NCBI GenBank assembly: GCA_000004985.1
Contig: GG738855.1
Strand: one strand, 5' to 3'
DNA: 64,000 nucleotides
Origin: Naegleria gruberi
Lineage: Eukaryota
Below the pieces are notes generated by a model that saw nothing but the letters and a program-made list of their open reading frames with translations, did no database searches and was not told the DNA's origin. Positions 10,978 through 64,000 of this stretch are shown here, one piece after another. Numbering within the stretch: the first letter of the stretch is position 1; every line of letters starts with the position of its first letter. Both the position numbers and the translations under genes were made by a program.

Positions 10978-11282
10978 TCTCTATTTCTTCTCTATGTATC
11001 CCTTAATGATGAAAATTTATTAATTTTTTTGAATATGAACTTGTTATTCCCGCGCATTGTACTCTGGAGACATTATTGTAGTGCGATTGATCAGAATGGC
11101 TTGAGGGTTTTGAGGTGAAAGAATGGAAATTGAGCTCCAACTAAGAATAAGTTCCCATTTCAAATAATTGTCAATGGCTCAATGGATTGTTGAGCTTGTA
11201 TGTCAAATTATCACTGTGGCAAAGATTAGACCAAAGAATTCAAGTTTGGTTGCTATGTTTGTCTAAACTTATTGTACTCTAA

Positions 11283-14701: not shown

Positions 14702-14717
14702 AGTTTCCCGCCAATCA
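14702..14717. promoter_or_regulatory. TTTCCCGCCAATCAG, an E2F-like core fused to a CCAAT box, about 300 bp upstream of CEP41
   Basis: Direct observation. TTTCCCGCC is the reverse-orientation E2F consensus. CCAATCAG resembles an NF-Y site. Confidence 0.35.
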
Positions 14718-15014
14718 GAGTACAAATTTCAAATCAAAAAAAAATTCAACTTTGGATTTTTAATCTCCATTATACTGCACTGTTGTATTATGAGCTGCTA
14801 TTTTAAACCTATTGGTGATGCTAAGGTAGGTTGGGAATATATTGTATGATGATGATGGTCTAATTATTCTTTTGTTTTAATTTAAATCAAAATAACAACA
14901 ATAGATTTTGGAGAAGAAGGCACCATCAAGTGTTTGTTTTAAAGATGTAAGATCATCACTGGATACAGGAAAAGTAAAAAAGAAGGATGATTCAGGTAAG
15001 TTCAAAGATCTTGA

Positions 15015-15787
15015 ATGTTTCCGAACATTACTTTCCTAACAACAGGCGATTCTAAATTATTTAAAAAAGTTGAAAACTTTAAGAGAATGAAAGGAACTGA
15101 ATTAATGAAACTCATTCTTCTCAAATTAAATTCGCAAAATAACACCTCACAAACAGAGCCTCTAGAACATGCTCCACCATCACCAAGTGGATCAAAAAGC
15201 TTGTATTCATCTATGGCTTCTTGCACATTCTCTGAAGCCAAATTAGCAGTGCATCAATCTGATCCAATCCTTGTAAAAACCAGATTGAAGGAAGATGTTC
15301 ATGATGTGGATAATATGGTACTCTTATTGGATGTTAGAGATACAGATGAATATTCAGTATGTCACATCCAGACAGCTTATAGATATCCAGCTGCTACAGT
15401 GAATAGAACTGTTAATCCATTTACACCTGAAATGCTTTCTTTTGTAAGTGTTTAAATCTTTAAAATTGGAACCTTATTGGAATTATTAAGAAAAATCATC
15501 CTCTCAAAAAAATTGTAATATATGACAGGGACGAAAAGATTGCTTGTCCTGCTGCCAACCTTCTCTTTGAAAAGGGTTTTGATAATATTGTAGTTCTTAG
15601 TGGAGGCTTACAAGAATTCTTCCAAAAACACCCAGAGCTCATTGTTGGAGAAGTGCCAAAGGAATGGTATCCTCCTGTTCTAAAGAAGAAAACAAGACCT
15701 CCTTCTGTCGCTAGCTTGAACTCAACAAAGAAGGCTTCGATTACAAAAGAGAAGACGAAATCAACAGGACCAAAACCATTCAAGTAA
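15015..15787 (+). CDS. CEP41: centrosomal/ciliary protein CEP41 (inactive rhodanese domain), join(15015..15443,15491..15787)
   Basis: [41 protein letters not shown]|[41 protein letters not shown] aligns with human CEP41 across the splice. The 47-nt intron has a GTAAGT donor. An additional 5' exon is possible. Confidence 0.75.
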
Positions 15788-20784: not shown

Positions 20785-22906
20785 TTATTTATTGAGAGTG
20801 AATTTCTTTCGTTGTTGCTGAGAGTAAGCTAGTGTATTATACATGTTCTTGATTTCTGCTAATTGACGTTTCAATTGATCATTTTCTTCAAGTAATCGTT
20901 TCTGTTCTTCTTCTAATTCTGATTGTTGTGCTTCTGGGTCTAATCTTGGTGGAGTTCTTTGTCTAATAGATGGTAGCTCAAAGCTCGAAGATAATTGTGA
21001 AGATTCTCCTAGTTTATCCTTGAGTGCAGTTATGTGTTGTTCATAATTTCTTTTCTGTGTTTCAATAATTTCTTGGTAGGTCCTGATTTCCTCTTCCTTA
21101 GATCGTTTACTATGCTCAATTGTGAGTTTAAGAGCTTCATTTTCATCTCTGAGGAGCATTATTTCTTCCTGGAGTTGTGATGTTGAAGGATAATCGAACG
21201 TATTTCTTTCTCCTTTCAAGAATTGACATTTTCTTTCCAGTTCTGAAGTTTGCAATCGTTCTTTCATCAGTATTTCATTAGTCTCGTTCAGCTTTTGCTC
21301 CAGCTCTGTTATTTTAGATCCAGTAACTTTTTTAAGTTCTTTCAACTTTTCCAATTCTATAGTTGTAATAGTGAGTTTTAATCTTAATTCCTCATCCGGT
21401 GTGGTATTGGAAATTGGCTGTTTGAGATCGAAACTAGTATTTTGAAATTGTAGAGTGTCTAGTGCTCTTCTACTTGTGCTTTGAAGCTCATTTTTCAAAT
21501 ATTTGATGATTTCATCCTTTTGTTCAATGTCTTTGCCCTATAGAAAATATTAAGCAAAGCTTCATTAAAAGTACTACCTACCAGCCTTTTGATTTCTTGC
21601 TCTAATTGTGGAGCAGATGGTATAGATGCTCCAGATTTTGGCCTTCTTTTCTTTAAATTGTCAATTTCTGCTTTCAACAAATCGACAAGCTTGTTGTCAT
21701 TCTCGGATTTCTCAATCATTCTGGCCTGTTTGGCCTTAATCTCATTGTAGGTCTTTTCTAAAATTTTGTTTCTAGCCACAGATGCATCCAACTTATTCTT
21801 GACAGCTTTGATTTCTTCCACTTTTTCAGTAATTTCTTTTTTCAAATCGACAACTTCATTCCTTCTTTCTTGTTCAAGTTTTTCAATTGCTTTTCTTTGC
21901 CTCTCATCCACAGAAACAGTAGATAGTGTTGAAATGGAGCTGTTTTCATTGGCAGAGACTGATTGAGGAGATATACTATTAATTGTTGATGAGAGAGGAC
22001 TTGGAATATTTGAAATTGTAGGAGAAGAGATTGTTTGTGATTCTAACTTCTTTTGGAGATCCTTGACCTTATTTTTAAGTAAATAAATTTGTTGAGCTCT
22101 TCCTCTAAACCCGTCGCTATTGGTAAGAAGTGAATCAATCGACAAGTCATCACCAACTTCTTTTTGAATAAGAGCTCTCAGTTTCAAATTTTCATTCTTG
22201 TGCTTTTCTCCTTGCTCTCTAAGCATTTTCATTCGTTTCTCATAAGTTGCAGCCCTTTCTTTAAATTGTTTAAGTAATTTCATTGTTTCATCCTCTCCGT
22301 CCTCTTCTTCCACAGATCCTGAATTGGTTTCATTTAAGTTTTCCCTCACCTTAGAACTAAAATGTCTCAGATTGTTATTATTTGTGACTGTTATTGATCG
22401 ACTCGATTGTTGTAATTGTTGTACCTGTTGAGTAAGAACTGCAACTTTAGACTTTTCCTTATTCAATTTTACAATTATATTCTTATTTTTTTTTGCCAGC
22501 TCAATGAGCTTTTTGTCTCTCAAGTCTATTAATTCCTCCGAATCTTGATCATGAAGTCATTAAATTGAATCTTGTTGTAATATTACATACCATCCAAAAA
22601 CAAAGCTTCTACTTCTCGGTTTGTATTCCTCAACTCTTCCACAACTTCTTTTAAATCTCGTATTTCACTCTCCTTTGCTTCAAGCTCCTCTAGGAGAGAT
22701 TTATTTACATCTGGAGAGCCTTCCATTGCAAGTTTATCCAACTTGGCATAGGATGATGGTTTGTTGTTTCCTAAATCCTCAATATTTGGAGGAGTTTCGT
22801 CTCCGCTACTATTCTCTTCATCCAATTCCTTTTTTTTGATGATCTCCTTTGATTTTAATTCTTGTTTTGATGACGATTTTTGTAGTTGTTGTTTACTTGT
22901 CGACAT
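20785..22906 (-). CDS. long coiled-coil protein, complement(join(20785..21537,21582..22543,22591..22906))
   Basis: Three track ORFs join in frame through a 44-nt intron (GTAGGT donor) and a 47-nt intron (GTATGT donor). The product is continuous heptad-repeat sequence. Confidence 0.6.
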
Positions 22907-22925: not shown

Positions 22926-22941
22926 TTGTACTCTACTTTTG
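22926..22941. promoter_or_regulatory. E2F-like site TTTTGGCGGGAAAG immediately upstream of the coiled-coil gene ATG at 22906
   Basis: Perfect TTTGGCGGGAAA 20-35 bp upstream of the ATG. Confidence 0.4.
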
Positions 22942-23005
22942 GCGGGAAAGTTTATTCAACCTCCCAACTGTTATCAAGACTTAAAACAGAGGAAATATAT
23001 TTTGA

Positions 23006-25585
23006 TTACATGATCGAACAACACTTAGCCTCCTTTTCTTGGACTGGTTTTCCTGGGTTCTTATTTGGGAGTGGTGTTGGTGGCATGAAAATAGGAGATA
23101 GTTGAATATCATCTGTGTGAAGAGTGTCATTAACATTCTTCGTTTGATTATTCTGTTTAGTGAGTGGAGGAGAGTTGGACTCAGAAGCATTAAGGTTGAC
23201 TGCAAAAATATTCTCATCAGTTTTGAGAGCACTGTTACTGGAGGAGGGTTTTTCCTTGACTGGAGTTTGTGGAGGAGATAGCTGGTATGGTGTGATGTAC
23301 TTTTCATTTTCTGGACCTTTCAAATCCTTGATATGAAAAAGAGAAAAGAATGTAGACTGAAGGGATGGATCCATTGGGTGTGGCTCCAACTTTTGTTTTC
23401 TATCAGCAAAAGGTACTGGTAAATAGAGATTTTCTCGTAATTTCCACTCATATTTGGCTCCTCTTTCGAATGGTATAGTTCTATTGTTCTGCACAACATC
23501 AATATTGTAATAGAAGGATTTGGACAGCTCATCTCTTTCCAACAAATTAGATCCTCCTCCCACGTTTACAAATGAATAGTAGAATGCAAATATTTTGAAT
23601 AATGATTGATTTCTTGAAGGGTCATTTTCAAAAATCTTGTAAAACTCTACAAAACAAGGCACATCTTCCTCAACCCAATCAAGCTCAGTAAGCTTTTTGT
23701 CAAGGAAAAGAGAAATACTGACATTGAGTATAAGTCTATAAGAATTATGGTGTGAGGAAGATATTATATCATCAACGTATCTGGTAACATCAGTTTTTCC
23801 AAAAAATGCTATTGAATGTTGCTCAATAGATCTCTTTTCAATAGCCTTGTTAAAGCTCATATCTATTACTTCCATAACAAAGTCTCGAGCTATAACTATG
23901 GAATCATAGGAGGGCTTGTGTTGTGGACTGGTTGGAGGAGAATAGAAAACGTCAGAAATATATCCAACTGGTGTTGGAGTACTAGACTTGGACTCACCAC
24001 TCATTTTAGAGAATGAAGATGATCGTGTTCTTTCCTTGTAGTTTTCCCTTCTCCACTGCATTAGTTTCCAATTTTTTGGTTGGCTTCTATCGTGCACTTC
24101 AAAAGAAGAAAAATCATTGTCATACATTTCAACACTCTCCGCAGTACTTATTTCACTAAACGTATCAGTGACATCATATTGATCTAGCTCTTGTTTAGTT
24201 TCAGGCAAAGAAGTTGCAACTGTAAGAGGACTGTTTGGCCGAGATGTGGTGAAACTTTTAGAATTTCCAGTTGTGTTGGGCCTAGAAGGTTTCTTCTTTG
24301 CTTTCATGTCCCCTATTGTTGGAGTTTTCACTCTTTGTATTTGAGTATTTACAGGAACTCTTTCCACACTCTTCCTTACATCAGTTACTATGGATGTAAG
24401 TGATGATATACTTCCTCTTCGAGGTGAATTTTGGGCTGATGGTGGTGGAAACATTGTGGAATTTGTGGGTATGGCATCTTTAAGACTTGGTTTCTTAACA
24501 GCAGTTGAACCAATACTACCACTCGATGTATTGGCTGTACTTGTCTTATCCCACTGTTGCTTCTTCTTTTCTGAGGGTTCTTTACATTTAATTTCATCGG
24601 TTGGATTGAAAAATTGAGGCTTATATCCCATATCCTTAATTGGTTTTGAAGGTTCCGATCTCCTTAATGGATCAACGGCATTTGTTTTTGTTTTTGGTTT
24701 AGATTTTGTTATTATTACTGGTTGAGGGGGTGGAGGTTGGTTAATTGTTTCAATTGTGGCTTGTTTCTTTGCTTTTTCATCATTTACATATTTTGACTCG
24801 TCTTCAAGAACTGGGGAAGCTTGGAAAAACTCATCCTCAGAAGAATCTCCAATTAAAAAGTCGTCTTCCTCCTTTTTTTCTACTTTGGAGCCGGGCACTG
24901 AGAATGTTATTTGAGTTTTTGGATTGCCTTGAATGTTAGGAGTAAAAAGCCACTCTCCACTTTCGTCTTCTTGAGCCTCGCTCAGTAATTTTGAGGCAGC
25001 CATCAATCTAATGTTATGAGCAACAGATTTTCTGTCACTAATATTGGGTAAAACCTTATCCTCTGTTAGAAGGTCTTTTTGAGATCCAGGTTTAAGGTTG
25101 AGTAGTTTTGCAGAATTTCCTAACGGAGAAGGGTAATGAATATACTTCTCATTAATTAAATAATTATTTACACCTTTCTTTTCAATTAGATTTCCACTTG
25201 GAGTTTCATATTTGATGTCTGGCATTAGAGAATCCATTTTTGTAATATAATATGCTTTGTCCCTCTCCTTTTTTACCATTATCTCCTTTTCAAAGAATTC
25301 CCCATCCATAAAACGTTTCTCTTCATCACCCATTGAGAGGTTTGCTCTCGGCGTTAGAATTGTTGGAGAAAGCAAAATGTCACTCATTTCAAGAGGTGAT
25401 AATTTACTTCCTGTTGGATCAAAGAAAGATCCTCCTAAAGATCCATTCAAATCATCAAATTCATCATCCAAAATACTTGTTTGTTTGAGCATGGTAAGAT
25501 TGGTATCCATCTCCCGCTGCATCTCCTCAATGGATTGTTGATTATCAAACAAATCCAACTCGCTATTGTCCAACAAACTAGACAT
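23006..25585 (-). CDS. large S/T/P-rich hypothetical protein with a conserved-looking C-terminal globular region
   Basis: 859-aa single ORF with an ATG start (MSSLLDNSELDLFD). It has proline/serine-rich low complexity. The C-terminal roughly 250 aa are compositionally normal. Confidence 0.45.
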   Translation of the reverse strand: MSSLLDNSELDLFDNQQSIEEMQREMDTNLTMLKQTSILDDEFDDLNGSLGGSFFDPTGSKLSPLEMSDILLSPTILTPRANLSMGDEEKRFMDGEFFEKEIMVKKERDKAYYITKMDSLMPDIKYETPSGNLIEKKGVNNYLINEKYIHYPSPLGNSAKLLNLKPGSQKDLLTEDKVLPNISDRKSVAHNIRLMAASKLLSEAQEDESGEWLFTPNIQGNPKTQITFSVPGSKVEKKEEDDFLIGDSSEDEFFQASPVLEDESKYVNDEKAKKQATIETINQPPPPQPVIITKSKPKTKTNAVDPLRRSEPSKPIKDMGYKPQFFNPTDEIKCKEPSEKKKQQWDKTSTANTSSGSIGSTAVKKPSLKDAIPTNSTMFPPPSAQNSPRRGSISSLTSIVTDVRKSVERVPVNTQIQRVKTPTIGDMKAKKKPSRPNTTGNSKSFTTSRPNSPLTVATSLPETKQELDQYDVTDTFSEISTAESVEMYDNDFSSFEVHDRSQPKNWKLMQWRRENYKERTRSSSFSKMSGESKSSTPTPVGYISDVFYSPPTSPQHKPSYDSIVIARDFVMEVIDMSFNKAIEKRSIEQHSIAFFGKTDVTRYVDDIISSSHHNSYRLILNVSISLFLDKKLTELDWVEEDVPCFVEFYKIFENDPSRNQSLFKIFAFYYSFVNVGGGSNLLERDELSKSFYYNIDVVQNNRTIPFERGAKYEWKLRENLYLPVPFADRKQKLEPHPMDPSLQSTFFSLFHIKDLKGPENEKYITPYQLSPPQTPVKEKPSSSNSALKTDENIFAVNLNASESNSPPLTKQNNQTKNVNDTLHTDDIQLSPIFMPPTPLPNKNPGKPVQEKEAKCCSIM

Positions 25586-25689: not shown

Positions 25690-25703
25690 ATTTGGCGCCA
25701 ACT
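25690..25703. promoter_or_regulatory. Palindromic TTTGGCGCCAAC motif in the divergent promoter between the genes starting at 25585 (minus strand) and 25998 (plus strand)
   Basis: Direct observation. It is GC-rich within an AT-rich spacer. Confidence 0.35.
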
Positions 25704-31617: not shown

Positions 31618-32286
31618 TTATTGTTTACCTCCGATGATAGACTTCAAGTGTTCGTTGAGCTTGGTTGGTGTATTCTTCCATGAGTGAGAAGTAACAAGAT
31701 TGTAGGTGGAAATGGTTGGTTTGACTGGATATTGAACAAAGAAAGTTTGAGCAGCTTCTTCTTCTCCATTGACAAGATAAGAGTACAGCAAAGCATTACG
31801 CAAGGAAGCAACTTCTCTATCAGTTGAAGCTCTCTTAATATATAATCCAAAGGTAAGTTCAGCATCAGGTACGCTACCAACTTGACCGAAAGCAGCAATA
31901 ATCTTGGCCATATCATCAATTTCCAAATCACGTGGGTGAGCATCGTAGTGTTGCTTGAGAGAAATGAGAGACTTGTAGTCGCTTGCCTTGGCAAATTCTA
32001 AAGCAGCATCACCACGTGATACCTTTCCTTCTCTTTCCTTTTTCAATTCGGCCAATCCATTCCAATTTCCTTCATAAACAAGGTCGAAAACCTTCTTGGC
32101 ATCTTGTTGTTTGAAAGAACTGGATCCAATTTTATATTCGTCTTCGCCGAATGGTGTAATAGAAAGAGATCTTGTTGTGGTGTGGAAAGAGTGTGATGAG
32201 AGGAAGACTCTTGAAGGAAGAACGGAAGAAGACTTCTTTGTACAAGCCTTGCAGATGTTGATGAGGGTGGATTTTTGGGCTGGCAT
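31618..32286 (-). CDS. hypothetical mitochondrial-type helical (PPR/TPR-like) protein
   Basis: It has a presequence-like N-terminus (MPAQKSTLINICKACTKKSSSVLPSRVFLSSHSFHTTTRSL) followed by roughly 35-aa helical repeats. Confidence 0.4.
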   Translation of the reverse strand: MPAQKSTLINICKACTKKSSSVLPSRVFLSSHSFHTTTRSLSITPFGEDEYKIGSSSFKQQDAKKVFDLVYEGNWNGLAELKKEREGKVSRGDAALEFAKASDYKSLISLKQHYDAHPRDLEIDDMAKIIAAFGQVGSVPDAELTFGLYIKRASTDREVASLRNALLYSYLVNGEEEAAQTFFVQYPVKPTISTYNLVTSHSWKNTPTKLNEHLKSIIGGKQ

Positions 32287-32370
32287 TTTTTTTAAATTTA
32301 TTTTTTAAAAATAAAATGGAATTGCATTTGAATGGCATACATTAATTTTCAATTTCATACCTTATTGAAA

Positions 32371-34459
32371 TTAGAATAGGTTTTTGAGTTGCTTATTTTC
32401 TTCTCTTAATGATCTCACTTCCTCGGTTAAATTTTCTACTTGTTTTGAAAGTTGTTCAATTAGAGAGAATGTCTGCTCTTGTTGAATACAGAATTGACGT
32501 AAAACATCTACATGAATGTTGGTGAGATCTTGGTGAATTGAACTCTGAAGATTGAAAATGGATTCTTGAAGTACATCCTTCATCACATCTTTCATTCTTT
32601 CCTCAGAAATACTATTTGACACAACTGGGGACCCAGTCGAGAGAGTTTGTTTCTGTTGTTGCTGTTGTCTAGATAGATGTGGTGATGAACTAGTTGCTAT
32701 TATTGAGGATGGAAGGGATTCGTCATCGATCATTTCATTGTGTTTTTGATTGTCTTCAAAAGATAACTCATCAACATTTTCGAGTGAGGGAGGAGTTTGG
32801 GGATGATAGTTAGAGGGTGGGAGAATATTCTCATTATTGGTGTCATCGACAGTGGGAGAGTTAAATTTAGGCTTTTTGGTTGGTCCTGAGGGAGAAAATA
32901 CAGACCTATCATCCTGAGTTGGTTTTAGGGATTTGTATATGGATAATCGATTATTTGTAGAATTTTCTAACATCTGACTGCTATTCAGATCAAGACTTTT
33001 GAAAGTGGTTGGTTTAAAAGGGTTTTCCAGGGAGAGTTTTGTGTTAATTTTGGAACTCAAGTGTTCCATTTGAGCTTGTTTTTTGATGTCCTCCAGTGTT
33101 GGAAATTGTGTAGATCCAATCTCAATACTTTTACCTGTTTTAACAGGAGAGAAAACATCCATACCATGATTTCTGTCTATGTTAAGTGTAGGTGGTTTAA
33201 CTTGTCTTTCTTGAGGAATGGAAGGAGGGGTTGATGGCTTTTTGAGAGATGAATAGGATTCAATGGTTGGGGATTCTCGTGGTCTTTGTACTTCAGATTG
33301 AGCTGTCTGCTGTTTAGCAGTGGATTTCTTAGATTTAGATTGAAAGGTTAGTGTTCTAATATATCCCATATCGACAGTAAGTTCAGTAATTGGACTCGTT
33401 GTTGATTTTTTCAAATCATAAAGGAAAACACTTCCATTAGATGTTCCTACAGCCATTATTGATCCATTATCCAAGTATGAAAATGAAGATATTGGTTGAG
33501 AAACTCGAATATTTTCCACAATCCTAATTTTAAAATTATATGATTATTCTACTAAACTATATGAAAATGCTTACTTTTTTTCCTTAATATCATAAAAGTA
33601 AATGTTCTTATCCAATCCTGCTGAAGCAAGGAGAGCAACATTTTGCTTTGAAAAATGTACTGCTACACATGGAGCTTGATGTTGATTAGGAAATGAGCAA
33701 TATGGCTTTCCAGAGATGGTATCCCATATTGTTACACTTCCATCATCACTGGCACTTGCCAATAGGGTTTTGTAAAAAGGTGAATATTCCAAAAATTTGA
33801 TTGATTGTTGTGTATTCGAAAGGGTGCATGAGAGAGTATTCGATACAATATTATGAATCAGAATTGTACCACTGGCATCACCACTCGCAACATGTTGATC
33901 ACCCTCGCTGAATGTGACACACGTGATAATTTCCTTATGTCCCTTAAATGTATTGATGACTTCCTTCTTTTTCAGATCCCAAATTTTTACGATACATGAG
34001 CTGCCTCCCGAACAAAGTTTGAGAGATGATTCTCCTATAGAAATTGATTGTACTTGTTCTTCAATATTTAATTTTCCAAATATTTCACCTTCAGGTGTTC
34101 CCATAATTACACTTCCATCATCACTACACGAAATGAGTACCTTATCTTGTTTTCACTCATTGGTTACAAATATTTTAATTGAAATACATACTATTGTGAT
34201 TCCATTTGGTGTCATTAATTGTTCGGTTTGGGAAATTTAACGAATTATAAGGACTCAATTTTCCATCCAATGTATTCAATTCTAATATCGATATTTGTTC
34301 GGATCCCACTATGGCCAATTTGTACAATGTTGTGGCAGATGTTGTGTTCGCATCTGATGATGAAGATGTCTTTGCATTTGTCCTATTACTGTTAGAAGCA
34401 ACACTTCTGGAACCTATTGGTGCAAAAGTTGAAGATGAAGGGTATTGTTTTGGATTCAT
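32371..34459 (-). CDS. NEDD1: NEDD1/GCP-WD (gamma-tubulin complex recruiting WD40 protein), complement(join(32371..33523,33575..34145,34192..34459))
   Basis: The WD40 blocks align with NEDD1 (IVKIWDLKKKEVINTFKGHKEIITCVTF...SDDGSVTIWD...GLDKNIYFYD). The C-terminal helix ...VRSLREENKQLKNLF matches the NEDD1 ...EIERLREENKRLRAHF. The two introns are 51 nt and 46 nt, with GTAAGC and GTATGT donors. Confidence 0.8.
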
Positions 34460-34474
34460 TTTTTTTGATACTAT

Positions 34475-34487
34475 TTTGGCGGGAATA
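34475..34487. promoter_or_regulatory. E2F-like site TTTTGGCGGGAAT in the 250-bp divergent NEDD1/NARFL promoter
   Basis: It lies about 20 bp upstream of the NEDD1 ATG at 34459 and is a consensus TTTGGCGGGAA. Confidence 0.4.
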
Positions 34488-39080: not shown

Positions 39081-39199
39081 GGTTACGGCCATATCACGAT
39101 GAATGCACCTCATCCCGTCCGATTTGAGAAGTTAAGCATCGTCGAGCCACATCAGTACTGAGGTTGGAGACAACTTGGGAACCTCTGGTGCTGTAGTCT
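39081..39199 (+). rRNA. rrn5: 5S ribosomal RNA gene (119 nt), dispersed single copy
   Basis: The 5' end GGTTACGGCCATA and the 3' end GGTGCTGTAGTCT pair as 5S helix I. An internal ...CCGATTTGAGAAGTTAAGC... matches the loop B and helix III region. A T6 run at the 3' end (CTTTTTT) is a Pol III terminator. Confidence 0.85.
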
Positions 39200-47453: not shown

Positions 47454-50400
47454 TTATTTCTTCTTGTTGAGTCTGGATAATTCCTTCTTGTAATTTTCAA
47501 CCTTGAGCTTTTCTTCATTGTAATTCTTTGTAATTTTGGCTTTGGAATCTTCAGCGAGGGCTAATTGCTTCTTTAACTTTTCAACTTCTGCCATTACTTG
47601 AGCTGCATTTCCACTCTTCAAAATGTTGAGCTGATCCATCAATTTGGAAATGTTTTCTCTCAAATCATTTACCTCAATATCTTTCTTGACAATTATTGTT
47701 TTCAATTCCTCAACTTCTTGAGATGATGTTTCCTTAACAATAATTGGTTCCACAACTGCCTTCTTAGATTCTTCCAGTTCAATATTCATCTTTTCCAAAA
47801 TTGAAACCTTAAGTGAGAGGTCTTGTACAACCTTCATTTGTTCATTGATTTCTTCCTTATCCTTTACAGATGAATTTTCGGCTGAGCTAACTTTGTCTGT
47901 CAAGTTCTTAATTGTTGCTTCCAAAGCATCAATCTTCTTCTTACTTTCAGTTCTTTCAGCATTTTGTTTTTCCTTAGCTTCCTTGAGAGCCTTTTCTTTG
48001 GCACTTTTCTCCTTGTCCAATTGTTGGTTGAGTGAGGATTGAGACTTTTCCAGAGATTCAATTCTTTTAGTAAATGAAGATACATCCTTTGAGTCTTTTG
48101 ATTTCGAGCAAACTAGATCGAAATCTGCTCTCAACTTTTCAAATTCTGATTGTCTCTTTGATAATTCGCTCATTAATTTTTCCACTCTATTATTCACTTC
48201 TGTCAATTCTGATGATTGTTTTTCTGCTTGTTGAGATTTTTGTTTGAGTTGATTTTCAATTTCTTCTCTTTCTGCCTGCATTTCCTTAATACGGGCTTCA
48301 AAAGATTCCTTGATTGAAGAAGTGTCTTGTTCGGACAATTGTTTTTCTAGAAGTTCAACCTTCGTTTGAGATTGTTCCCTTTCTGTTGCAGAAACTTCTT
48401 GCAACTCTTTAAGGGTTTGTTGAGCCTTTGTTAATTGCAATTGAATATCATCTCTTTCCTTTAAATTTTGTACAGTATCGGAAGCCTTTGATTGAATCAA
48501 TTCGAGTATCTTGGCGTCCTTTTCTTTTACAATCTTGGTTAATTCTTGATTGGAGTGTTTGAATTGCTCCATCATCTTTCTAACCTCATCAACTTCAGAC
48601 ATGGCAGTGTTCATAACAGTCTTCATTTGAGCCTGTTGTTCAGCCACCTTCTTGTGTTTTTCAATCTCTTCTTGGAAAGATTTGATTTGTTGTTTCAACT
48701 CAATATTCTCGGAAGCAACAACTTTGCTCTCGGAATCTTTGTTATCATCTTGTTTAAGAATTTCAATTTCTTCTTGGAGTGTTGTAATAGTGTTCTTGAG
48801 CTCTTGATTTTCAGTTGAAGCCTTCTCCGTTAATTCCTTTAATATGTTGCTTGTTTCTTGGAGAGAATGTTCTAATTTGGTGATCATCTCTGTAGATTTC
48901 TCCTTCTCCCTTGAAAGAGTGGTTAAGGTTTCATTCAACTTTTGCATTTCTCTATAATGTTCTTCTCCCTTTTCCTTGGCAGCAATCAATTCCTTTGTTA
49001 ATGTTGCAACAGTTTCACTTCCCAGAGCAACCTCTTTCTTTAATTTTTCAACTTCACTCATAGTGGAATTAAGAGCATCTTCCTTCTTTTTACGTTGATC
49101 ATTAATTGAAGAAATGGTTTCATCTCTTTTTTGTAAATCTGATTTGAGTGCTTCTACCGTTTGATTCAACTTTTGGATCTGTGATTCCTTTTCTTTGGTG
49201 GTTTTTTGAGTGGTTGTAAGTTTGTCAGTGCATTCTTTTAATTGCTTCTTTCCAGCATCAACATCTACTCTCATTTGATTAATTTCAAAGTTTCTTGTCT
49301 TGAGCTCTGACTTGAGCATTTTGATATTTTCAATATCGTTCTTGTGTTGCTCTCTTTCCTTTTGTAATGTTTCAATGACTTGCTCGTTGTTCTTCAACAC
49401 TTCATTACTTTCATAAATTATCCTTTCTTGTTCTTCCAATGTATTGGTTAATGACAACAATTGGTTCTTTAAACCTTCGGATTCTAAAACCAAACTTTCG
49501 ATAGCTTCTTCCTTTGCATGAATCAAATCCTTATTATCAGAAATTACCTTATCCTTACTCTCAGATTCCGTCTTTGTTTGTTGTAAAGCCTGAATGTTTT
49601 TAGCAATTATTTCCTCTTTTTCTGCAATCTCCTTTTCCAGTTCCTTGTTTCTTGTTTGGTTTGTTTCATCTTGGGAAGAAAGCTTGGTAACTTCAACAAG
49701 CAAGCATTCACTCTTTCTCTTTTCCTCATCCCTTTCATGCTTGATATGTTCAACCTCTTTGGAAATTTCCTTGAATTTGCGAGAGGTTTCTTCAATCTCC
49801 TTGTTCAAGTCGAGATTACAATTTCTGAGCAATTCATCTTTCTGTAACAACTCCTTCTTAGTGTCATCAAGTTGTTTCTTTAATTGTTCAACAACTTCAG
49901 TAGAAGGAGATGGAGAAGTAGCTGGAACAAATGATTGAATCTTTGCCAATAATTCTTCTTTTTCCTTCAAAAGTTTAGCAATTTCCTTGGCATCTCTTTG
50001 TTTGGCTTGAGTGAGTTTTTCAACTTCCTTAGTCTTCTCAAGAACGGATCTTTCCTTTGCGATAACGGTATCCTTCAATGTGGTAATTTCCTTAGTTTTA
50101 GAGGAGACTTGTTTTTCAAGGGAAGCAAATTTAGTCTCTGTTTCGGATTTGATATTTCTCAGCTTTTCAAGCTCCACCTTCATGTTTGATACTTCATTAA
50201 CAAACTGTTCTCTTTCTTCTTTGAGTTGTTTCTTGTCTTCCTTAATTATCTTTGATTCCTTCTTTTGGCTTGTAAGGGCATTGTTCAAATCAAGCTTTTC
50301 CTTCATCAAGGTAGCAATTCTGGAATCTTTCTCTGTTATTTCCTTTTGCAATGTTGCAATTTCTTCCTTTTGTTGATCTTTGATTTTCTCCATGTTGGAC

Positions 50401-50720
50401 AATTTAGATTGAATACTCTTGTTTTCCTTTTCCACAGCCTTTATGCGTTCTGCTTGTTCTTCAAGTTTTCTCTTTGAGGCTTCCTTTTCGGATTTCAGAC
50501 TGAAAACTACTCCCAAAAGAATAGCAATACAAGTAGTCAATATAATTGATTGGTATGAAAGACTACTACTAATAGTATCAAGCAGGAAATTACTACTTGG
50601 TGCACAATAGACCGAAGAAGAAAACAACATTGCTAGGGTCAATGATTTAAGACCCAAGTAGGAAGAATGGTTTACCAAGTTCATATTTTCTATATTGTTG
50701 TTGGTGTTTAAATTAAACAA
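47454..50720 (-). CDS. giant coiled-coil protein with N-terminal membrane anchors (kinectin/golgin-like)
   Basis: 1088-aa single ORF with two N-terminal hydrophobic segments followed by about 1000 aa of uninterrupted heptad repeats rich in E/K/L/Q. Confidence 0.6.
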   Translation of the reverse strand: MFNLNTNNNIENMNLVNHSSYLGLKSLTLAMLFSSSVYCAPSSNFLLDTISSSLSYQSIILTTCIAILLGVVFSLKSEKEASKRKLEEQAERIKAVEKENKSIQSKLSNMEKIKDQQKEEIATLQKEITEKDSRIATLMKEKLDLNNALTSQKKESKIIKEDKKQLKEEREQFVNEVSNMKVELEKLRNIKSETETKFASLEKQVSSKTKEITTLKDTVIAKERSVLEKTKEVEKLTQAKQRDAKEIAKLLKEKEELLAKIQSFVPATSPSPSTEVVEQLKKQLDDTKKELLQKDELLRNCNLDLNKEIEETSRKFKEISKEVEHIKHERDEEKRKSECLLVEVTKLSSQDETNQTRNKELEKEIAEKEEIIAKNIQALQQTKTESESKDKVISDNKDLIHAKEEAIESLVLESEGLKNQLLSLTNTLEEQERIIYESNEVLKNNEQVIETLQKEREQHKNDIENIKMLKSELKTRNFEINQMRVDVDAGKKQLKECTDKLTTTQKTTKEKESQIQKLNQTVEALKSDLQKRDETISSINDQRKKKEDALNSTMSEVEKLKKEVALGSETVATLTKELIAAKEKGEEHYREMQKLNETLTTLSREKEKSTEMITKLEHSLQETSNILKELTEKASTENQELKNTITTLQEEIEILKQDDNKDSESKVVASENIELKQQIKSFQEEIEKHKKVAEQQAQMKTVMNTAMSEVDEVRKMMEQFKHSNQELTKIVKEKDAKILELIQSKASDTVQNLKERDDIQLQLTKAQQTLKELQEVSATEREQSQTKVELLEKQLSEQDTSSIKESFEARIKEMQAEREEIENQLKQKSQQAEKQSSELTEVNNRVEKLMSELSKRQSEFEKLRADFDLVCSKSKDSKDVSSFTKRIESLEKSQSSLNQQLDKEKSAKEKALKEAKEKQNAERTESKKKIDALEATIKNLTDKVSSAENSSVKDKEEINEQMKVVQDLSLKVSILEKMNIELEESKKAVVEPIIVKETSSQEVEELKTIIVKKDIEVNDLRENISKLMDQLNILKSGNAAQVMAEVEKLKKQLALAEDSKAKITKNYNEEKLKVENYKKELSRLNKKK

Positions 50721-50850: not shown

Positions 50851-52116
50851 TTATTGTCCATTGTTTGGGTGGTATGTAAACGACTTGTCATTCTCCAAAA
50901 GAAGATCTAAAAAGAGTGCATCCAATTCATCAGTGATAGCTTGGTCATGTTGAGCCCATCTATCTTTGGAATGTTTAACAAATAGTGAACTACAAACAGC
51001 ATTAACTCTATTCAATTCATAAACAATCCATGATTCAACTCGTTGTCCAAAATGTAATGAAGATAATGGAACATTTGGTACTTGTTGCCTTAACAAATAT
51101 AATTCCTCAATTTCTTTTTCAATTTCAATTGTTCTCAGTGCTTTAACAGTATCAAATAATCTTCTAAAATTCAAAATTATTATATTTTCTAATGGTTCAG
51201 CAACATCAGCGTGGTTAGTATTGATTAAATACTTCCATTCCAAAATATTTACACTCAATAGTGTTTGAATAATGAATAGAGTCTTTTTCACATCCAAAAC
51301 ATCTCGTTGTGATGTAGGTGGTTTGTCCTTGCTATCCAAAATATTGTGATAATTCTTTTTTGCAGTATTAAGTTTTGCATACGCCACTGTATAAGGACTT
51401 CCATGAATAATTTTAGCAGCTACATTCTTCAATCTGTCAATATTATTAGTTCGAGAAACGAGCACTCTTTCGGAGGCAAGCCATTCAAGAATTGAAGAAT
51501 TACCAGACCAAATGAATGAAAAAGATCTACGTAACTCCCATCCCAGTATATCAACGCATCGGATTGGATTCACATTACATTTAAAAATGTTTTGAATTGA
51601 TGTAGGAATTTTGCTCTTTTCTCCTCCTCTATAAGTTGCAAGCATATTCCTCAATTTTAAATAATCTCTCAATGATGATGAATACACAAAACGAATATCA
51701 AAATCGGAAAGTGATTCACAATGATATCCATATGAGTGACTTCCTGTCTCGACACAATATAAAATCTTTACATTGTTCTTTCTTTCATATTCTTGCAGTT
51801 TTTCTTGAATAGCCATTGGAATTTCCATAGGAACATAATTATAATATGAAGACATGGTAGATGGTAATTTTTCCAAACTTAAATTATTATTATTACTAAT
51901 GGGAGATGTATTATTTGTAATTGGGCTTGTATTCATAGTACTATTCGATGAAGATGATACTTGTTTTTTCGGATTATGAACAACTTTTCTTGAGTGTTGT
52001 TGTTGTTGTTGTTGTTGAGTAGAATGATGGTAAGCATATACTGGTAGAGTAGTCTTCATCATCATCATGGGATGAAGTGTCTTTCGGAAACGAAGAAGAT
52101 TACTCTGCATCATCAT
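50851..52116 (-). CDS. Nucleotidyltransferase-fold protein (GS...D.D motif), possibly of bacterial ancestry. It has a presequence-like N-terminus and a poly-Q run.
   Basis: KILYCVETGSHSYGYHCESLSDFDIRFVY fits the hG[GS]x9-13DhD Pol-beta-like NTase signature. The N-terminus is MMMQSNLLRFRKTLHPMMMMK. Confidence 0.4.
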   Translation of the reverse strand: MMMQSNLLRFRKTLHPMMMMKTTLPVYAYHHSTQQQQQQQHSRKVVHNPKKQVSSSSNSTMNTSPITNNTSPISNNNNLSLEKLPSTMSSYYNYVPMEIPMAIQEKLQEYERKNNVKILYCVETGSHSYGYHCESLSDFDIRFVYSSSLRDYLKLRNMLATYRGGEKSKIPTSIQNIFKCNVNPIRCVDILGWELRRSFSFIWSGNSSILEWLASERVLVSRTNNIDRLKNVAAKIIHGSPYTVAYAKLNTAKKNYHNILDSKDKPPTSQRDVLDVKKTLFIIQTLLSVNILEWKYLINTNHADVAEPLENIIILNFRRLFDTVKALRTIEIEKEIEELYLLRQQVPNVPLSSLHFGQRVESWIVYELNRVNAVCSSLFVKHSKDRWAQHDQAITDELDALFLDLLLENDKSFTYHPNNGQ

Positions 52117-57844: not shown

Positions 57845-59212
<1,368 letters not shown>

Positions 59213-59335
59213 TTATTAAGGATTGTATTTTGCAAGTTTCTCTATAATGGAGGACGAGCGATTTTTTTTAATTTTGTTTCTAAGAACAAGCAACCCTGTT
59301 ACGTTATTTAAACAAAACTACAACCTTTTGTAATA

Positions 59336-59426
59336 TTGTGGCGCCAAAATAAAATACAAAAATTTGGCGGGTTCAGTACAATTCCTTATTAATAACATTT
59401 TTACAGTTATTTTGGCGGTAAAATAT
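59336..59426. promoter_or_regulatory. Cluster of three E2F-like GC-rich motifs 130-220 bp upstream of the alpha-tubulin ATG
   Basis: The motifs TGTGGCGCCAAAA, ATTTGGCGGGTT and TTTTGGCGGTAAAA lie in an otherwise roughly 80 percent AT spacer. Each is approximately TTTSGCGS, and the first is palindromic. Confidence 0.4.
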
Positions 59427-59501
59427 GTGAGTACTCATTTCTGTTGTAAACTTTAAAATTAATCCAAAAAATCTTTCCAATGTACTATTGTAATAAGTTA
59501 A

Positions 59502-61472
59502 CTATTTATTATTATTATTATTGTTATTGTTATTATTATTGGCATTATTCCTATTGTTTGGATTATTCATAAGGTTCATACCACCATTTACCATATACAT
59601 TGGTTGATTGAAAGGAAGATTTGGCATGTTTGGCATATTTGGCATGTTTGCCATGTTGAATGGCATAACAAAATTATATGGAAATGGCATTGGATTGGAC
59701 AAGATTAATCCTTGTGTATTTTGATAACCAGGTATTGTAGTTGGCACTGTTGGTGCTGTGGGAGGGTTCAAGTTTGGTGGTAATGCTTGAGATGGTTGTG
59801 GTTGTGTTGGTGGTGGCTTTTCTGAACATTTTTCAATCAGTTCAGTACCTATTGGGAATGATACAAAAACAGGTTCAGAGGCAATGGTGTTGGCGGTGAT
59901 GGTTTCCTGTTCCTTTGTTTTATCAAAGTATATCTTCAAGTATTGATAAGGGAATAGTAATAGGGATGACTTGTCATCAATTGGAGCAGTAATGAAATAT
60001 TTCTTCTTGGCCATATTGTTCAATAGAGTTGGAATTTTAGTTGCCTGGGTTGACGGTGTTAATTTCCATAAATGAACTTTCATATCCTTCTTTACAAGAT
60101 TTGCAATTATACTAGTTTTAAGGGACATGAGATTCTTGGTAATCTTGATATCTTTTGGCCATTTACTGGAATCAACAACAATTTCACTTTTAGCATAACC
60201 TTCCAAATGTCCAATAATAGAGTTAGGAGAATCAATACTGAATGTTAATTTGTGAATTTGTACATGGTTAGGACCAATTGTGTAGTCATTAATAGTTTTG
60301 GCAGCAGTACTAGATGTAGAATTTCCACTAGGTGTGCTTCCTGTAGAATTTGGAGTTGAAGTAGTTCCAGATGTGGTTGAATTGGTAGGAGTACTTCCAT
60401 TTGTTGGAGTTGTGGTAGTTGATTGATTGTTGGGAGTGGTTACAGTGGTTGGAGGTGTGGTTGAGGTATTATTGGTTGCTGAGCTAACTGTAGTTGGTGC
60501 AGTACTTGGAGCCAGAAAGCTTGGTGGTGGAGTTGTGACAGTTGTAATGACAGGAGGAATTACAACACCTTTAGCAACACTGGCTTTTGGTGGCAACTTT
60601 GGAGTAACATCCTTTTCTGTTTTGATATGGGTTGTGTTGGAGGCATTTGTGTTGATGCTACTATTGTTGGTATTAGCGCTGGCATTACTGTTTGAATCAT
60701 CATTCTTTTCATTCTTGTCATTCTTCTCCAAAGGTTGCAGTTTGAGTTTGTCTTTTTCAACTCCTCTCAAATCTATCAAAAGACCATATTCTGTATTGGG
60801 ATAATGTAAATTCATAGCATCTAGAATGAGTCTCGATAATCCTTCACTAATACTGAAAGGATCTGTAGAATTACTTGTGTTAGAGGTAACCATTGATTGT
60901 GGATCTAGCTTGCAAGCCTCTGTTATTTTTTTCCATTTTCTTGAAATGCTAGGGGAGAGTATTGAGATAATAAGACCCTTCTTGACCATATCTTTTACAA
61001 TTTCCATTGCATTCTTTCCAACATACATTCCATTCAAAATGCAAGGGTGCTCTGATGGAGTGGATGAACAAATCATCACATACTTTAAAGCATCCTTGTC
61101 CCATTCCAAATCAGTGATTGAAGTTGCAAGAGCTTCACTGACACAACTATGGGCAATACCACCAGCATAGAATTTTTCCTTCAATCCTTCCAAAATTTGG
61201 TAAAATGTGGAATAATCTTTAATGAAAGGAATTACCTTTACCAAAAAATCACCATTTGGTGGATAATTTTGAAATAAAACAGCAGAAAATTCCGTATTCT
61301 TATTTCTCAAATACAACATGTAGGGCACAATGACTCTGTTTAAAAAGTAGGCAAAATATGTCTTCATTCCTGTTGTTGTGTCGATTAAAATACATATTTG
61401 TTTAGGTTGATTATCAGATGGGCCATGTGCAGAAGATGATTTGGGAATTGAACCCGATCTATTACTTAGCAT
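59502..61472 (-). CDS. MED25: Mediator subunit MED25-like protein (N-terminal vWA-like domain, S/T-rich linker, ACID/PTOV-like domain, Pro-rich and poly-N C-terminus)
   Basis: The vWA blocks ICILIDTTTGMKTYFAYF, FYAGGIAHSCVSEALATSI, YVMICSSTPSE and GLIISILSPSI align in order with the MED25 vWA domain. The poly-N tail is encoded by (AAT/AAC)n. Confidence 0.55.
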   Translation of the reverse strand: MLSNRSGSIPKSSSAHGPSDNQPKQICILIDTTTGMKTYFAYFLNRVIVPYMLYLRNKNTEFSAVLFQNYPPNGDFLVKVIPFIKDYSTFYQILEGLKEKFYAGGIAHSCVSEALATSITDLEWDKDALKYVMICSSTPSEHPCILNGMYVGKNAMEIVKDMVKKGLIISILSPSISRKWKKITEACKLDPQSMVTSNTSNSTDPFSISEGLSRLILDAMNLHYPNTEYGLLIDLRGVEKDKLKLQPLEKNDKNEKNDDSNSNASANTNNSSINTNASNTTHIKTEKDVTPKLPPKASVAKGVVIPPVITTVTTPPPSFLAPSTAPTTVSSATNNTSTTPPTTVTTPNNQSTTTTPTNGSTPTNSTTSGTTSTPNSTGSTPSGNSTSSTAAKTINDYTIGPNHVQIHKLTFSIDSPNSIIGHLEGYAKSEIVVDSSKWPKDIKITKNLMSLKTSIIANLVKKDMKVHLWKLTPSTQATKIPTLLNNMAKKKYFITAPIDDKSSLLLFPYQYLKIYFDKTKEQETITANTIASEPVFVSFPIGTELIEKCSEKPPPTQPQPSQALPPNLNPPTAPTVPTTIPGYQNTQGLILSNPMPFPYNFVMPFNMANMPNMPNMPNLPFNQPMYMVNGGMNLMNNPNNRNNANNNNNNNNNNNK

Positions 61473-61598: not shown

Positions 61599-62378
61599 TT
61601 AATTTTGGTGCAAAACACTTGAGGCTTTGAGCAATTCATTCAACTTTTCTTCATCGTCCTCCTCTTCTTGTCTTCTTCGAGCTTGTTCTTCCTTCTTATT
61701 CTTTTGAGTTTCTTCCCAAACAGCTGCCCACATTTCCATACACTTACTGTGATAAAATAGTTGAGAATGAACAAACTCTTCAAATACTGTCCTCAAATCT
61801 CCAAGTCCTTCGTAGAGCTTTTTTTTCAATCCTCTATTTTCTCTAAGTTCTCTAATTTGATCATCTACAGATGTTGGCACCTTTCTTCTCTTTTTAATAT
61901 TCTTTTTTTGAGTTTTCACATATTCTGTATTGAAATCTCTTATGAGCTTCCATGTTTTTGAGAAACTCTCTATATCATTCGATTGTAATCTGTCAATTCG
62001 TTCTTGAAGAATAACATTTTGATTATTTGTATAAATGAATCCTTGGTGAAGAATAGCAAGAAATGTTTGTAAATCCTTATGATCCTTAACGTCAAGAGTT
62101 GATATTTTTTCATCGAGTGGGAGAAGAGACTTGTTGACAGTTTGTAAGCTCTTCTCATATTCTCTCAACTGAAATTTAAAAAAGTCAGCAAAGTCTAGCA
62201 CCTTCGTTCCTCTCTCCAGAGACTGTGAGGCGTAAAAGAGCATTGAATCGGAAGAGTTGGGATTAAGTGATGTTCCTAACGATTGTTGAAGTTGTTTTAG
62301 AGAATCATCAGAAGATCCTTGTGTTGGCATTCCACTAAGAGGAGATATTGGTGTTTTTGGTGTTGTTGTTCCTAACAT
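61599..62378 (-). CDS. hypothetical helical protein
   Basis: 259-aa ORF with an ATG start. It is predicted to be alpha-helical, with a basic KKNIKKRRK patch and an acidic C-terminus. Confidence 0.4.
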   Translation of the reverse strand: MLGTTTPKTPISPLSGMPTQGSSDDSLKQLQQSLGTSLNPNSSDSMLFYASQSLERGTKVLDFADFFKFQLREYEKSLQTVNKSLLPLDEKISTLDVKDHKDLQTFLAILHQGFIYTNNQNVILQERIDRLQSNDIESFSKTWKLIRDFNTEYVKTQKKNIKKRRKVPTSVDDQIRELRENRGLKKKLYEGLGDLRTVFEEFVHSQLFYHSKCMEMWAAVWEETQKNKKEEQARRRQEEEDDEEKLNELLKASSVLHQN

Positions 62379-62437: not shown

Positions 62438-62480
62438 TGTTGGCGCCAATAATTATGTATAATTTGGCGCCAAATTTACA
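62438..62480. promoter_or_regulatory. Two palindromic GGCGCC motifs (TGTTGGCGCCAATAAT and AATTTGGCGCCAAATTT) 60-100 bp upstream of the gene starting at 62378
   Basis: Direct observation. The second motif is a 17-nt perfect palindrome. Confidence 0.4.
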
Positions 62481-62777: not shown

Positions 62778-64000
62778 TTAAAGACCAGTCGGATAGGTTT
62801 CTTCAAGTCGCTTTTTAGCCCATTGATGTTGCATATCTATTGGATGGACTGCAGTGGTGGTGTTGAAATGAATAAGGGCATCAAATTGCTTTGCGACCTT
62901 TGCTTCAAAGTAATGAGATTGTCTCTCAGTTTTCGGTCTGTAAATAACACCAATAGCTCTTTCTAGTCTCTCCTTTTCTAATTCCCTTCTCAAAGTTGCA
63001 TTAGTTTCAACACTTGGATCCTTGCTTTTAAATAATAGCATGTAGTCTTTGGTCTTTTGACCGATTGTTGCATCATGAAGCAATTCTTCAATTGAATCCT
63101 TCATACCAGGGTTGACACGTTTATATTCAGGATCTTGATTCCATTTATCAGCAGCTGTTACACTTCCATTAAATGTGGAAAACCCAACAATGTAGACATC
63201 ATCTGGAAAGTTTTCTCTGCACTTTCTTCCAATGTTAATTTCATGGCCCTTATCATAGATACTATCTGTTTGTGAGGCATCTCCAACATGAGAATTGTGA
63301 GCAAACACAATAACTTTGGCCTCTTTTCCATAGCTATTGGAGTAATATTTCATAATCTCAACCAGTGTCTCAAAGAAGTGCTCATCCCGAATATTCCAAC
63401 TTCCATCCACAAACATAACTCTATAATAATGCTCTGCATTCTTTACAACCATTGCATTTTGAATGGCATTGAAGAGATGGTCCTTTTCTTGTAATTCCTT
63501 TGTTTCTCTATTCTGCAAATCCAATAATACCTGCATTACCTTTTCTTGACATGATCCACCAATTACTTTTCTTATTGGCTCCTTCTTTTTGTAATTTTTC
63601 ATGCACTCATATTGCTCCCTCACATGTTTAGCACCTTCATGATCACCAATTGATTCGAAATATTCGAGAACGACCCTCATACTTCTGTCACTACTATACA
63701 AATCAAGACCGTACAATCCAACCATATCCTTCTCCTTATTGAATTGTGTATTATACTCCCTCAGCCACTCCACAAGATTGAGAGTGGGAACATTTCTCCA
63801 CATCCAAGTTGGGAATCGTTTAAATCCACTCAGTGAATCAACACCAGTGCAATCAATTTGGTGCTTGATAAATTCATTCACCCTAGAAGTATCGGGAAAG
63901 TCAGCCTCAAGGCAAATACAATTGAAACCCTTCTCTGATATTAGACGCTTTGTAATGGCTGCTCTGTGTTCGTAGAATTCATGTGTGCCATGAGATGCCT
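62778..64000 (-). CDS. erythromycin esterase (EreA/EreB, PF05139) family protein, 5' end beyond the window
   Basis: It has IVFAHNSHVGDA (the HNSH motif). The frame upstream of the track start at 63881, which is a GTG, continues open to the window edge. That upstream frame encodes ...ASHGTHEFYEHRAAITKRLISEKGFNCICLEADFPDTSR, which contains the EATHGTHEF-type N-terminal motif. Confidence 0.7.
   Translation of the reverse strand, partial: ASHGTHEFYEHRAAITKRLISEKGFNCICLEADFPDTSRVNEFIKHQIDCTGVDSLSGFKRFPTWMWRNVPTLNLVEWLREYNTQFNKEKDMVGLYGLDLYSSDRSMRVVLEYFESIGDHEGAKHVREQYECMKNYKKKEPIRKVIGGSCQEKVMQVLLDLQNRETKELQEKDHLFNAIQNAMVVKNAEHYYRVMFVDGSWNIRDEHFFETLVEIMKYYSNSYGKEAKVIVFAHNSHVGDASQTDSIYDKGHEINIGRKCRENFPDDVYIVGFSTFNGSVTAADKWNQDPEYKRVNPGMKDSIEELLHDATIGQKTKDYMLLFKSKDPSVETNATLRRELEKERLERAIGVIYRPKTERQSHYFEAKVAKQFDALIHFNTTTAVHPIDMQHQWAKKRLEETYPTGL

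Follow-up and report, generated by a model that had tools for sequence, protein, structure and literature searches.

Predicted E2F-family sites in the promoter of a flagellate alpha-tubulin gene of Naegleria gruberi and upstream of centriole- and cilium-type genes in the same window

The stretch of DNA analysed here (the window) comprises 64,000 nucleotides of contig GG738855.1 of the Naegleria gruberi strain NEG-M assembly (GCA_000004985.1). It carries an intronless gene for flagellate alpha-tubulin, upstream of which lie three GC cores that resemble binding sites of E2F-family transcription factors. The encoded protein of 453 amino acids, ending in ...GGDQ, is identical to TBA1_NAEGR / EFC47345, annotated as "Tubulin alpha-1/2/3". 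Directly upstream of the tubulin gene, in the same orientation, is a Med25-like gene, so that the tubulin promoter must fall in the 295-bp spacer (59207..59501) that runs from the tubulin ATG to the Med25-like stop codon. The features of the locus are as follows.

57845..59206, minus strand: flagellate alpha-tubulin gene, the presumed target of the three sites
59233..59275, minus strand: core-promoter block, in gene sense an A-run then CGCTCGTCCTCCATTATAGAGAAACTTG, 27-69 bp upstream of the tubulin ATG
59338..59349, minus strand: proximal E2F-type site, plus strand GTGGCGCCAAAA, gene-sense TTTTGGCGCCAC, ~135-139 bp upstream of the ATG
59363..59372, minus strand: middle E2F-type site, plus strand TTTGGCGGGT, gene-sense ACCCGCCAAA, ~158-164 bp upstream of the ATG
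59410..59423, minus strand: distal E2F-type site, plus strand TTTTGGCGGTAAAA, gene-sense TTTTACCGCCAAAA, ~206-212 bp upstream of the ATG
59502..61472, minus strand: Med25-like gene

Read on the sense strand toward the tubulin ATG, the order of the sites is TTTTACCGCCAAAA, then ACCCGCCAAA, then TTTTGGCGCCAC. The original prediction had placed three such sites 130-220 bp from the ATG; all three were found, all within 59336-59426, at measured distances of 135, 158 and 206-212 bp. Its description of the first of them as the optimal palindromic E2F/DP site held only for the core: GGCGCC is present at 59340-59345, within TATTGTGGCGCCAAAATAAA, but the left flank is TTGT, not TTT, and the site is for this reason not the optimal palindrome, being identical to the perfect palindromic 10-mer TTGGCGCCAA at 9 of 10 bases. 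The middle site includes TTTGGCGGG (59363-59371), and the distal site lies ~80-90 bp past the stop codon of the Med25-like gene. Given the density of sites in the window, the presence of three inside 100 bp is mildly unusual (p ~0.03).

Across the window, words of this type are far more frequent than expected. TTTGGCGS occurs 9 times, compared with 0.66 +/- 0.70 in dinucleotide shuffles, none of which reached 9, and TTGGCG occurs 21 times, compared with 6.3 expected. When all 8-mers of the non-coding DNA were scanned, GGCGCCAA proved to be the most over-represented (9 versus 0.09, Poisson p ~8e-16) and CCCGCCAA ranked near the top (4 versus 0.05), the remaining high scorers being trinucleotide repeats. 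The perfect 10-mers, TTGGCGCCAA (4 versus 0.02 expected) and TTCCCGCCAA (3 versus 0.05), are non-coding in all 7 copies and are located 14-157 bp upstream of an ATG. The more permissive TTSSCGS sites show the same bias, 12 of 15 falling in the 22% of the window that lies outside open reading frames (ORFs) (binomial p 2.6e-6). All four copies of CCCGCCAA are non-coding, and CCCTCCAA, CCCACCAA and CCCCCCAA are each represented by one copy, in coding sequence only; the CpG of the element matters in N. gruberi. The element is also oriented: every non-palindromic site with an unambiguous target reads CCCGCCAA on the sense strand of that target. A chance origin of the motif is excluded at the level of the window.

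The perfect sites precede other genes, among which are CEP41-, CCDC13- and NEDD1-like genes that the original prediction had missed; their presence under the same motif changes the meaning of the tubulin sites. These sites and genes, together with one weaker word, are listed by position.

11047..11055, plus strand: weaker E2F-like TTCCCGCGC, between an ASC-channel ORF (ATG 10977, minus strand) and a NOPCHAP1-like gene (ATG 11283, plus strand)
14705..14714, plus strand: perfect TTCCCGCCAA, sense, 76-87 bp upstream of the CEP41-like ATG (14791)
14791..15787, plus strand: CEP41-like gene, a three-exon model rebuilt by hand, with introns of ~88 and ~50 bp and a 12-codon first exon
20785..22906, minus strand: CCDC13 homologue, E ~1e-15 to bird CCDC13, with a Paramecium match too
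22939..22948, minus strand: perfect TTCCCGCCAA, sense, 31-43 bp upstream of the first-exon ATG of the CCDC13 homologue (22906)
23006..25585, minus strand: gene NAEGRDRAFT_64718, encoding 859 amino acids with a CaaX end
25692..25701, palindromic, no strand assigned: perfect TTGGCGCCAA, 106-116 bp upstream of the 859-amino-acid gene
31618-34459, minus strand: NEDD1 homologue, jgi_78870
34476..34485, minus strand: perfect TTCCCGCCAA, 14-27 bp upstream of the probable first-exon ATG of the NEDD1 homologue (34459)
47454..50684, minus strand: gene encoding 1076 amino acids
50832..50841, palindromic, no strand assigned: perfect TTGGCGCCAA, 147-157 bp upstream of the 1076-amino-acid gene
61599..62378, minus strand: gene NAEGRDRAFT_64736, encoding a helical protein of 259 amino acids
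62440-62449 and 62464-62473, palindromic, no strand assigned: two perfect TTGGCGCCAA, 62-96 bp upstream of the 259-amino-acid gene

The NEDD1 assignment draws on the WD40 part of the protein (E = 2e-38 to human NEDD1), on its C-terminal helix (E = 1.5e-9) and on an existing listing of this gene as the N. gruberi NEDD1. The site before it (34476..34485) also lies 222-235 bp upstream of a divergent NARF-like gene, and conforms to the sense-strand orientation only when assigned to NEDD1 instead of the NARF-like gene. The CEP41-like model aligns over its full length with human CEP41 (BLASTP E = 2e-36), but this identity is a lead rather than a database result; an exact look-up of the hand-built protein returned no identical deposited protein, and the annotated model differs. 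The 1076-amino-acid protein consists of a long coiled coil after an N-terminal hydrophobic stretch, by eye a possible transmembrane segment, and had no informative Pfam match. The 859-amino-acid protein had neither an informative Pfam match nor a PDB match. Membership of TTCCCGCGC at 11047 in the same set is uncertain. The motif-bearing set in the window is dominated by microtubule, centriole and cilium genes. No recognised housekeeping gene of the window has a perfect site; such sites are absent at the genes for thiolase, a Pex2/12-family peroxin, leucyl-tRNA synthetase, SRP54, TsaE, a GNAT acetyltransferase, SUI1 and WASH-CCDC53.

For the 259-amino-acid protein, the identity of CIBAR1 was considered and is not claimed, the PDB match being marginal (E = 0.007), with no Pfam match and a poor AlphaFold model (predicted local distance difference test, pLDDT, 55). 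As to gene structure, the NEDD1-like gene apparently has a 5' exon of ~118 codons upstream of the listed ORF, and the ORF list understates both the NEDD1-like and the CEP41-like genes.

The two forms of the element correspond to independently described E2F motifs. The palindromic form equals the human E2F1 motif from high-throughput systematic evolution of ligands by exponential enrichment (HT-SELEX), ATTGGCGCCAAA (PMC5449588), and the oriented form is the same as the E2F site of plants, TTTCCCGCC (PMC8008544). Overall, the window sites agree with the E2F consensus TTTSSCGC, either palindromic TTTGGCGCCAAA or TTTCCCGCC-type, at 10-12 of 12 bases. We take the oriented form to be equal to the E2F7/8 SELEX motif as well.

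The N. gruberi genome encodes proteins of the corresponding family: an E2F, a DP, a DEL with two winged-helix domains (E2F7/8-like) and an RB appear in the source data of Medina et al. 2016. The DNA-reading motif of the winged helix is RRIYD in NgruE2F, RRRVYD in NgruDP and KRRIYD in the first domain of NgruDEL. The E2F protein is part of the N. gruberi proteome and contains the Pfam domains PF02319 (E2F_TDP) and PF16421 (E2F_CC-MB); orthologues are encoded by N. fowleri, N. lovaniensis, Willaertia and Acrasis. When the DNA-binding domain of the N. gruberi protein is compared with human E2F4 (PDB 1CF7), the match has E = 7e-25, and a 22-residue stretch that includes the RRIYD helix is identical. 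Sharing its recognition helix with human E2F4, the encoded protein is predicted to bind these words. The C-terminal end of NgruE2F reads ...DDFMFEMESGEGVSDLFL, which by eye we take to resemble the RB-binding/transactivation motif EEGEGIRDLF of human E2F1.

Conservation was assessed at the alpha-tubulin loci of N. fowleri (L003 and L005), N. lovaniensis (L007 and L016) and Willaertia magna (L008) and on a Naegleria-like metagenome contig (L002). The neighbours upstream of alpha-tubulin vary, comprising an FHA gene, a rhodanese gene and, in Willaertia (L008), an uncharacterised gene of 295 amino acids; as these neighbours differ, the shared elements belong to the tubulin gene, not to Med25. Sense-strand (T)CCCGCCAAA elements are found 130-240 bp upstream of the ATG at most of the alpha-tubulin loci and, in N. 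fowleri (two loci) and N. lovaniensis, they take the form (T)CCCGCCAA(A), 145-240 bp upstream. The individual promoters contain TTTTACCCGCCAAAAT and ATGCCCGCCAAAAA (L005), GGCCCGCCAATT (L003), GATCCCGCCAAATA (L007) and two copies of TTTCCCTCCAAAA (L002); the Willaertia promoter has near-sites only, TCTCCCGCCATTAT (CCCGCCATT) and TTTCCCTCCAAAA.

Other members of the set show the same pattern. Orthologues of CCDC13 have a site at about -40, namely TTGGCGCC in Willaertia and TTTCCCTCCAAAT on a Naegleria metagenome contig (L013). Orthologues of the 259-amino-acid gene have sites at -92 to -137, GTTGGCGGGAT in N. lovaniensis and TTTCCCGC with TTTTGGAGGGAAAA in N. fowleri, and in both species this promoter is shared with a divergently transcribed Enkurin gene. 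When the loci of other species were pooled, 8 sites were counted in 2,340 bp of orthologous promoter and 16 in 79,711 bp elsewhere, a 17-fold enrichment (Poisson p = 4e-8). In consensus, encoded factors, promoter-proximal position and conservation, the sites thus have the properties of E2F/DP-family elements, as far as sequence can tell. The label "E2F-like" in the original prediction was apt, given the agreement with the E2F1 HT-SELEX and plant E2F motifs, the encoded E2F, DP, DEL and RB, the E2F4-like domain and the conservation in promoters.

The comparison of loci also bears on gene order. Adjacency of the 259-amino-acid gene and Med25 is kept in N. lovaniensis and N. fowleri (L009 and L010), and alpha-tubulin follows Med25 only in N. 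gruberi; the gene facing the 259-amino-acid gene is Enkurin in the sister species and an erythromycin-esterase-like gene in N. gruberi. The different neighbourhoods of alpha-tubulin in each species suggest that gene copies have moved. In Willaertia, further E2F-like words (L008 ~482; L015 ~10211 and 5047) are found in a spacer flanking the Nipped-B (cohesin loader) gene, 45 bp before an MGMT-like DNA-repair gene and at the E2F gene's own 5' end, a hint that the motif may also serve chromosome-cycle genes. E2F autoregulation was considered as well and is not used as support, the Willaertia E2F locus having just a GGAGGG variant and a TTTGGCGC barely inside the called coding sequence.

Nearer the start codon, a near-invariant block, an A-run then CTTCATTATAGAGAA, is common to all compared alpha-tubulin loci, from Naegleria to Willaertia. 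The corresponding tubulin block of the window (59233..59275) is probably the TATA/initiator region together with the start of the 5' untranslated region (UTR). Sense-strand A-runs of at least 7 bases are found within 150 bp upstream of 17 of 40 start codons in the window, compared with 3 of 40 for T-runs, and look like a strand-specific general core-promoter or 5' UTR feature, not one specific to the genes with E2F motifs. A second word, (C/T)CCATTAT(A/C), is located 24-44 bp upstream of the ATG in the tubulin gene (59243-59251) and the CEP41-like gene (14766-14774), and the promoter of the 859-amino-acid gene has a near-match, ACCATTATC, at ~25611-25617, outside the searched pattern; all these bearers also have E2F-type sites. 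The word is weakly enriched in the window (7 versus 2.7) and is embedded in the CTTCATTATAGAGAA block of loci L002, L003, L005, L007, L008 and L016. It may be an initiator or TATA element.

Lai et al. 1988 describe the flagellar alpha-tubulin as two residues longer than usual, with a glutamine end, and its mRNA as undetectable in amoebae and rising steeply in the first hour of differentiation. The RNA-seq data of Kennard et al. (Data S2) give, for TUBA2, a paralogue with an identical product, log2 fold changes (log2FC) of +5.6, +8.7, +8.1 and +7.9 at 20-80 min of differentiation; through synchronised mitosis, the values are about -1.2 to +0.4. The original prediction had implied either cell-cycle or differentiation-coupled control of tubulin. 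With no induction in mitosis and no detectable mRNA in amoebae, the cell-cycle half of that statement lacks support in the form given, and the differentiation half is the one favoured.

We lean toward the interpretation that the three cores are E2F-family sites serving a differentiation gene set, that of the centriole and flagellum, rather than ordinary cell-cycle control. The predicted ligand would be the E2F-DP heterodimer of N. gruberi or its two-domain DEL, both E2F-family factors, reading an element that is palindromic, (A/T)TTGGCGCCAA(A/T), or oriented, TTTCCCGCCAAA (scan form TTTCCCGCCAA) on the sense strand, and that a wider set of promoters would share at 15-210 bp upstream of the ATG. 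Such a factor would place these genes under the amoeba-to-flagellate programme, with its de novo formation of basal bodies and flagella. It might switch the genes on as differentiation begins, or an RB/DEL-type repression that silences them in cycling amoebae might be lifted. Here we infer E2F binding, the direction of its effect and the co-induction of the other motif-bearing genes with tubulin. The stronger proposal, that an E2F-family factor (E2F-DP or DEL) is the transcriptional switch of Naegleria differentiation and directly controls flagellar tubulins and basal-body genes, is distinctly more tentative, and we put it forward as a possibility.

Several observations weigh against the differentiation interpretation. 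E2F occupancy is a prediction, and each of the three tubulin sites differs by one base from the perfect 10-mers TTGGCGCCAA and TTCCCGCCAA. Sampling was confined to a single 64-kb window, in which seven or eight promoters bear the motif; their genes were grouped as centriole and cilium genes post hoc, and the window contains no DNA-replication genes, so that the canonical class of E2F targets falls outside it. Among the motif-bearing genes, induction in differentiation is documented for tubulin alone. Outside N. gruberi, the N. lovaniensis alpha-tubulin paralogue at L016 has no strict site, and the 11-kb region surrounding the E2F gene of that species has no site. Finally, CCCTCCAAA, in which a G-to-T change removes the CpG, occupies equivalent positions in other loci (L002 1-30, L008 ~1800, L010 ~3863 and L013 ~1923). 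The non-coding DNA of the N. gruberi window lacks this variant altogether. Either the CCCTCCAAA variants represent decayed sites, or the factor accepts T at this position and is less strict than E2F.

These variants are an argument for a different, possibly heterolobosean-specific factor that reads CC(G/T)CCAAA, the resemblance to E2F sites being a coincidence. Canonical E2F needs the central CGC, and four loci from other species or strains have CpG-less words at positions that are orthologous or equivalent; the lack of any sign of E2F autoregulation in the 11 kb around the N. lovaniensis E2F gene points the same way. We nevertheless consider this explanation unlikely, as agreement of the sites with two independent E2F-family motifs extends over 10-12 of 12 bases, the promoters of the N. 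gruberi window hold the CpG form only, and the encoded E2F and human E2F4 have identical recognition helices. An alternative that would dispense with regulation altogether, namely that the GC words arose by chance or have a non-regulatory role in the spacer, for example as 3'-end signals of the Med25-like gene, could appeal to the short distance between the distal site and the Med25 stop codon, to a weak GCGCCAAA located 16 bp after the N. fowleri Med25 stop codon and to the modest significance of the three-site cluster taken alone. It is effectively excluded by the 14- to 200-fold enrichment in the window, with no shuffle reaching the observed counts, together with the conservation of the motif or a near-variant at alpha-tubulin genes that stand beside unrelated neighbours; moreover, the 3' end of the N. 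lovaniensis Med25 gene has no such site.

Centriole-duplication genes are typical E2F targets in animals, and the sites could accordingly be ordinary G1/S elements, with tubulin and the centriole genes simply periodic and the motif unrelated to the flagellate programme. E2F, DP and RB indeed constitute an ancestral G1/S module (Medina 2016), and some replication and mitotic genes, among them MCM4, Apc6 and Aurora, rise transiently in Naegleria differentiation (Kennard et al. Data S2). For the tubulin gene, a role of this kind is unlikely because the gene is silent in cycling cells: by the account of Lai et al. 1988, this alpha-tubulin is unexpressed in growing amoebae, and in Data S2 the paralogue with the identical product is up >250-fold in differentiation, against log2FC values of about -1.2 to +0.4 in mitosis. 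Furthermore, Kennard et al. describe separate, divergent tubulins for mitosis and amoebae without centrioles. Taken as an explanation of the sites, the G1/S alternative is accordingly improbable, more so than a different factor reading CC(G/T)CCAAA.

E2F sites are a textbook element. The window sites resemble canonical E2F/DP elements in that they are the same words to 10-12 bases, are promoter-proximal and occur in an organism that encodes E2F, DP, DEL and RB. They differ in that binding is predicted and in that the N. gruberi bearers are a flagellum-specific tubulin gene and centriole and cilium genes, not replication or G1/S genes; moreover, cycling Naegleria cells have neither centrioles nor cytoplasmic microtubules. 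Use of a protist E2F for stress-triggered differentiation has a precedent in Giardia, in which an E2F-like factor activates cyst-wall protein genes during encystation. That case differs from Naegleria in lineage, in its cyst-wall targets and in a more divergent binding sequence.

By analogy, the closest functional parallel is the programme of vertebrate multiciliated cells, in which E2F4/E2F5-DP with MCIDAS/GEMC1 drives centriole amplification and cilia genes in non-dividing cells (PMC12183034). Common to both would be E2F-type control outside S phase, with untemplated centrioles and then cilia, as proposed here for Naegleria, and targets that would include centriole-assembly and microtubule-nucleation factors. 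Unlike the vertebrate programme, Naegleria is without the RFX/FOXJ1 tier, and the structural axonemal tubulin gene itself carries the sites. The RFX X-box / FOXJ1 regulon of animals and choanoflagellates is alike in that one short promoter motif recurs across many cilium genes, but the motif and the factor family are unrelated, and both factors are reported to be absent from Naegleria (PMC12183034).

The remaining features of the window include RNA genes and unusual protein families.

8949-10977, minus strand: two adjacent ASC (amiloride-sensitive sodium-channel) domain ORFs, which may be exons of one gene
39081-39199, plus strand: full-length 5S rRNA gene, Rfam 98.8 bits
44851-44922, minus strand: tRNA gene, Rfam 69.5 bits, in an ORF-poor, AT-rich stretch
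50851-52116, minus strand: RlaP-family nucleotidyltransferase gene, PF10127
62600-62673, plus strand: degenerate 5S-like fragment, 19.4 bits, below threshold and with its middle missing, ~130 bp upstream of the two sites of the 259-amino-acid gene
62778-63881, minus strand: erythromycin-esterase-like gene, PF05139 (E = 3e-93)

The erythromycin-esterase-like gene, the RlaP-family gene and the ASC-domain ORFs represent bacterial-type or otherwise unusual families.

Naegleria is a classic model in which centrioles and flagella are built from nothing within ~1 h, and flagellar tubulin transcription is known to start up during this process. According to a 2025 review (PMC12183034), it lacks RFX, FOXJ1 and XAP5, the established cilia-gene regulators, and other factors must fill this role. 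Our literature searches found no paper that connects Naegleria tubulin genes or differentiation with E2F or with a promoter motif of any kind. A short, specific motif with an obvious candidate factor makes the hypothesis testable with published RNA-seq data and the genome sequence. If true, it would explain how a cell-cycle module is reused for differentiation in an organism where centrioles are uncoupled from mitosis. The link between E2F and centriole/cilium biogenesis would then be an ancient eukaryotic feature, not an animal invention, with E2F control over the assembly of centrioles and cilia dating back to near the root of eukaryotes.

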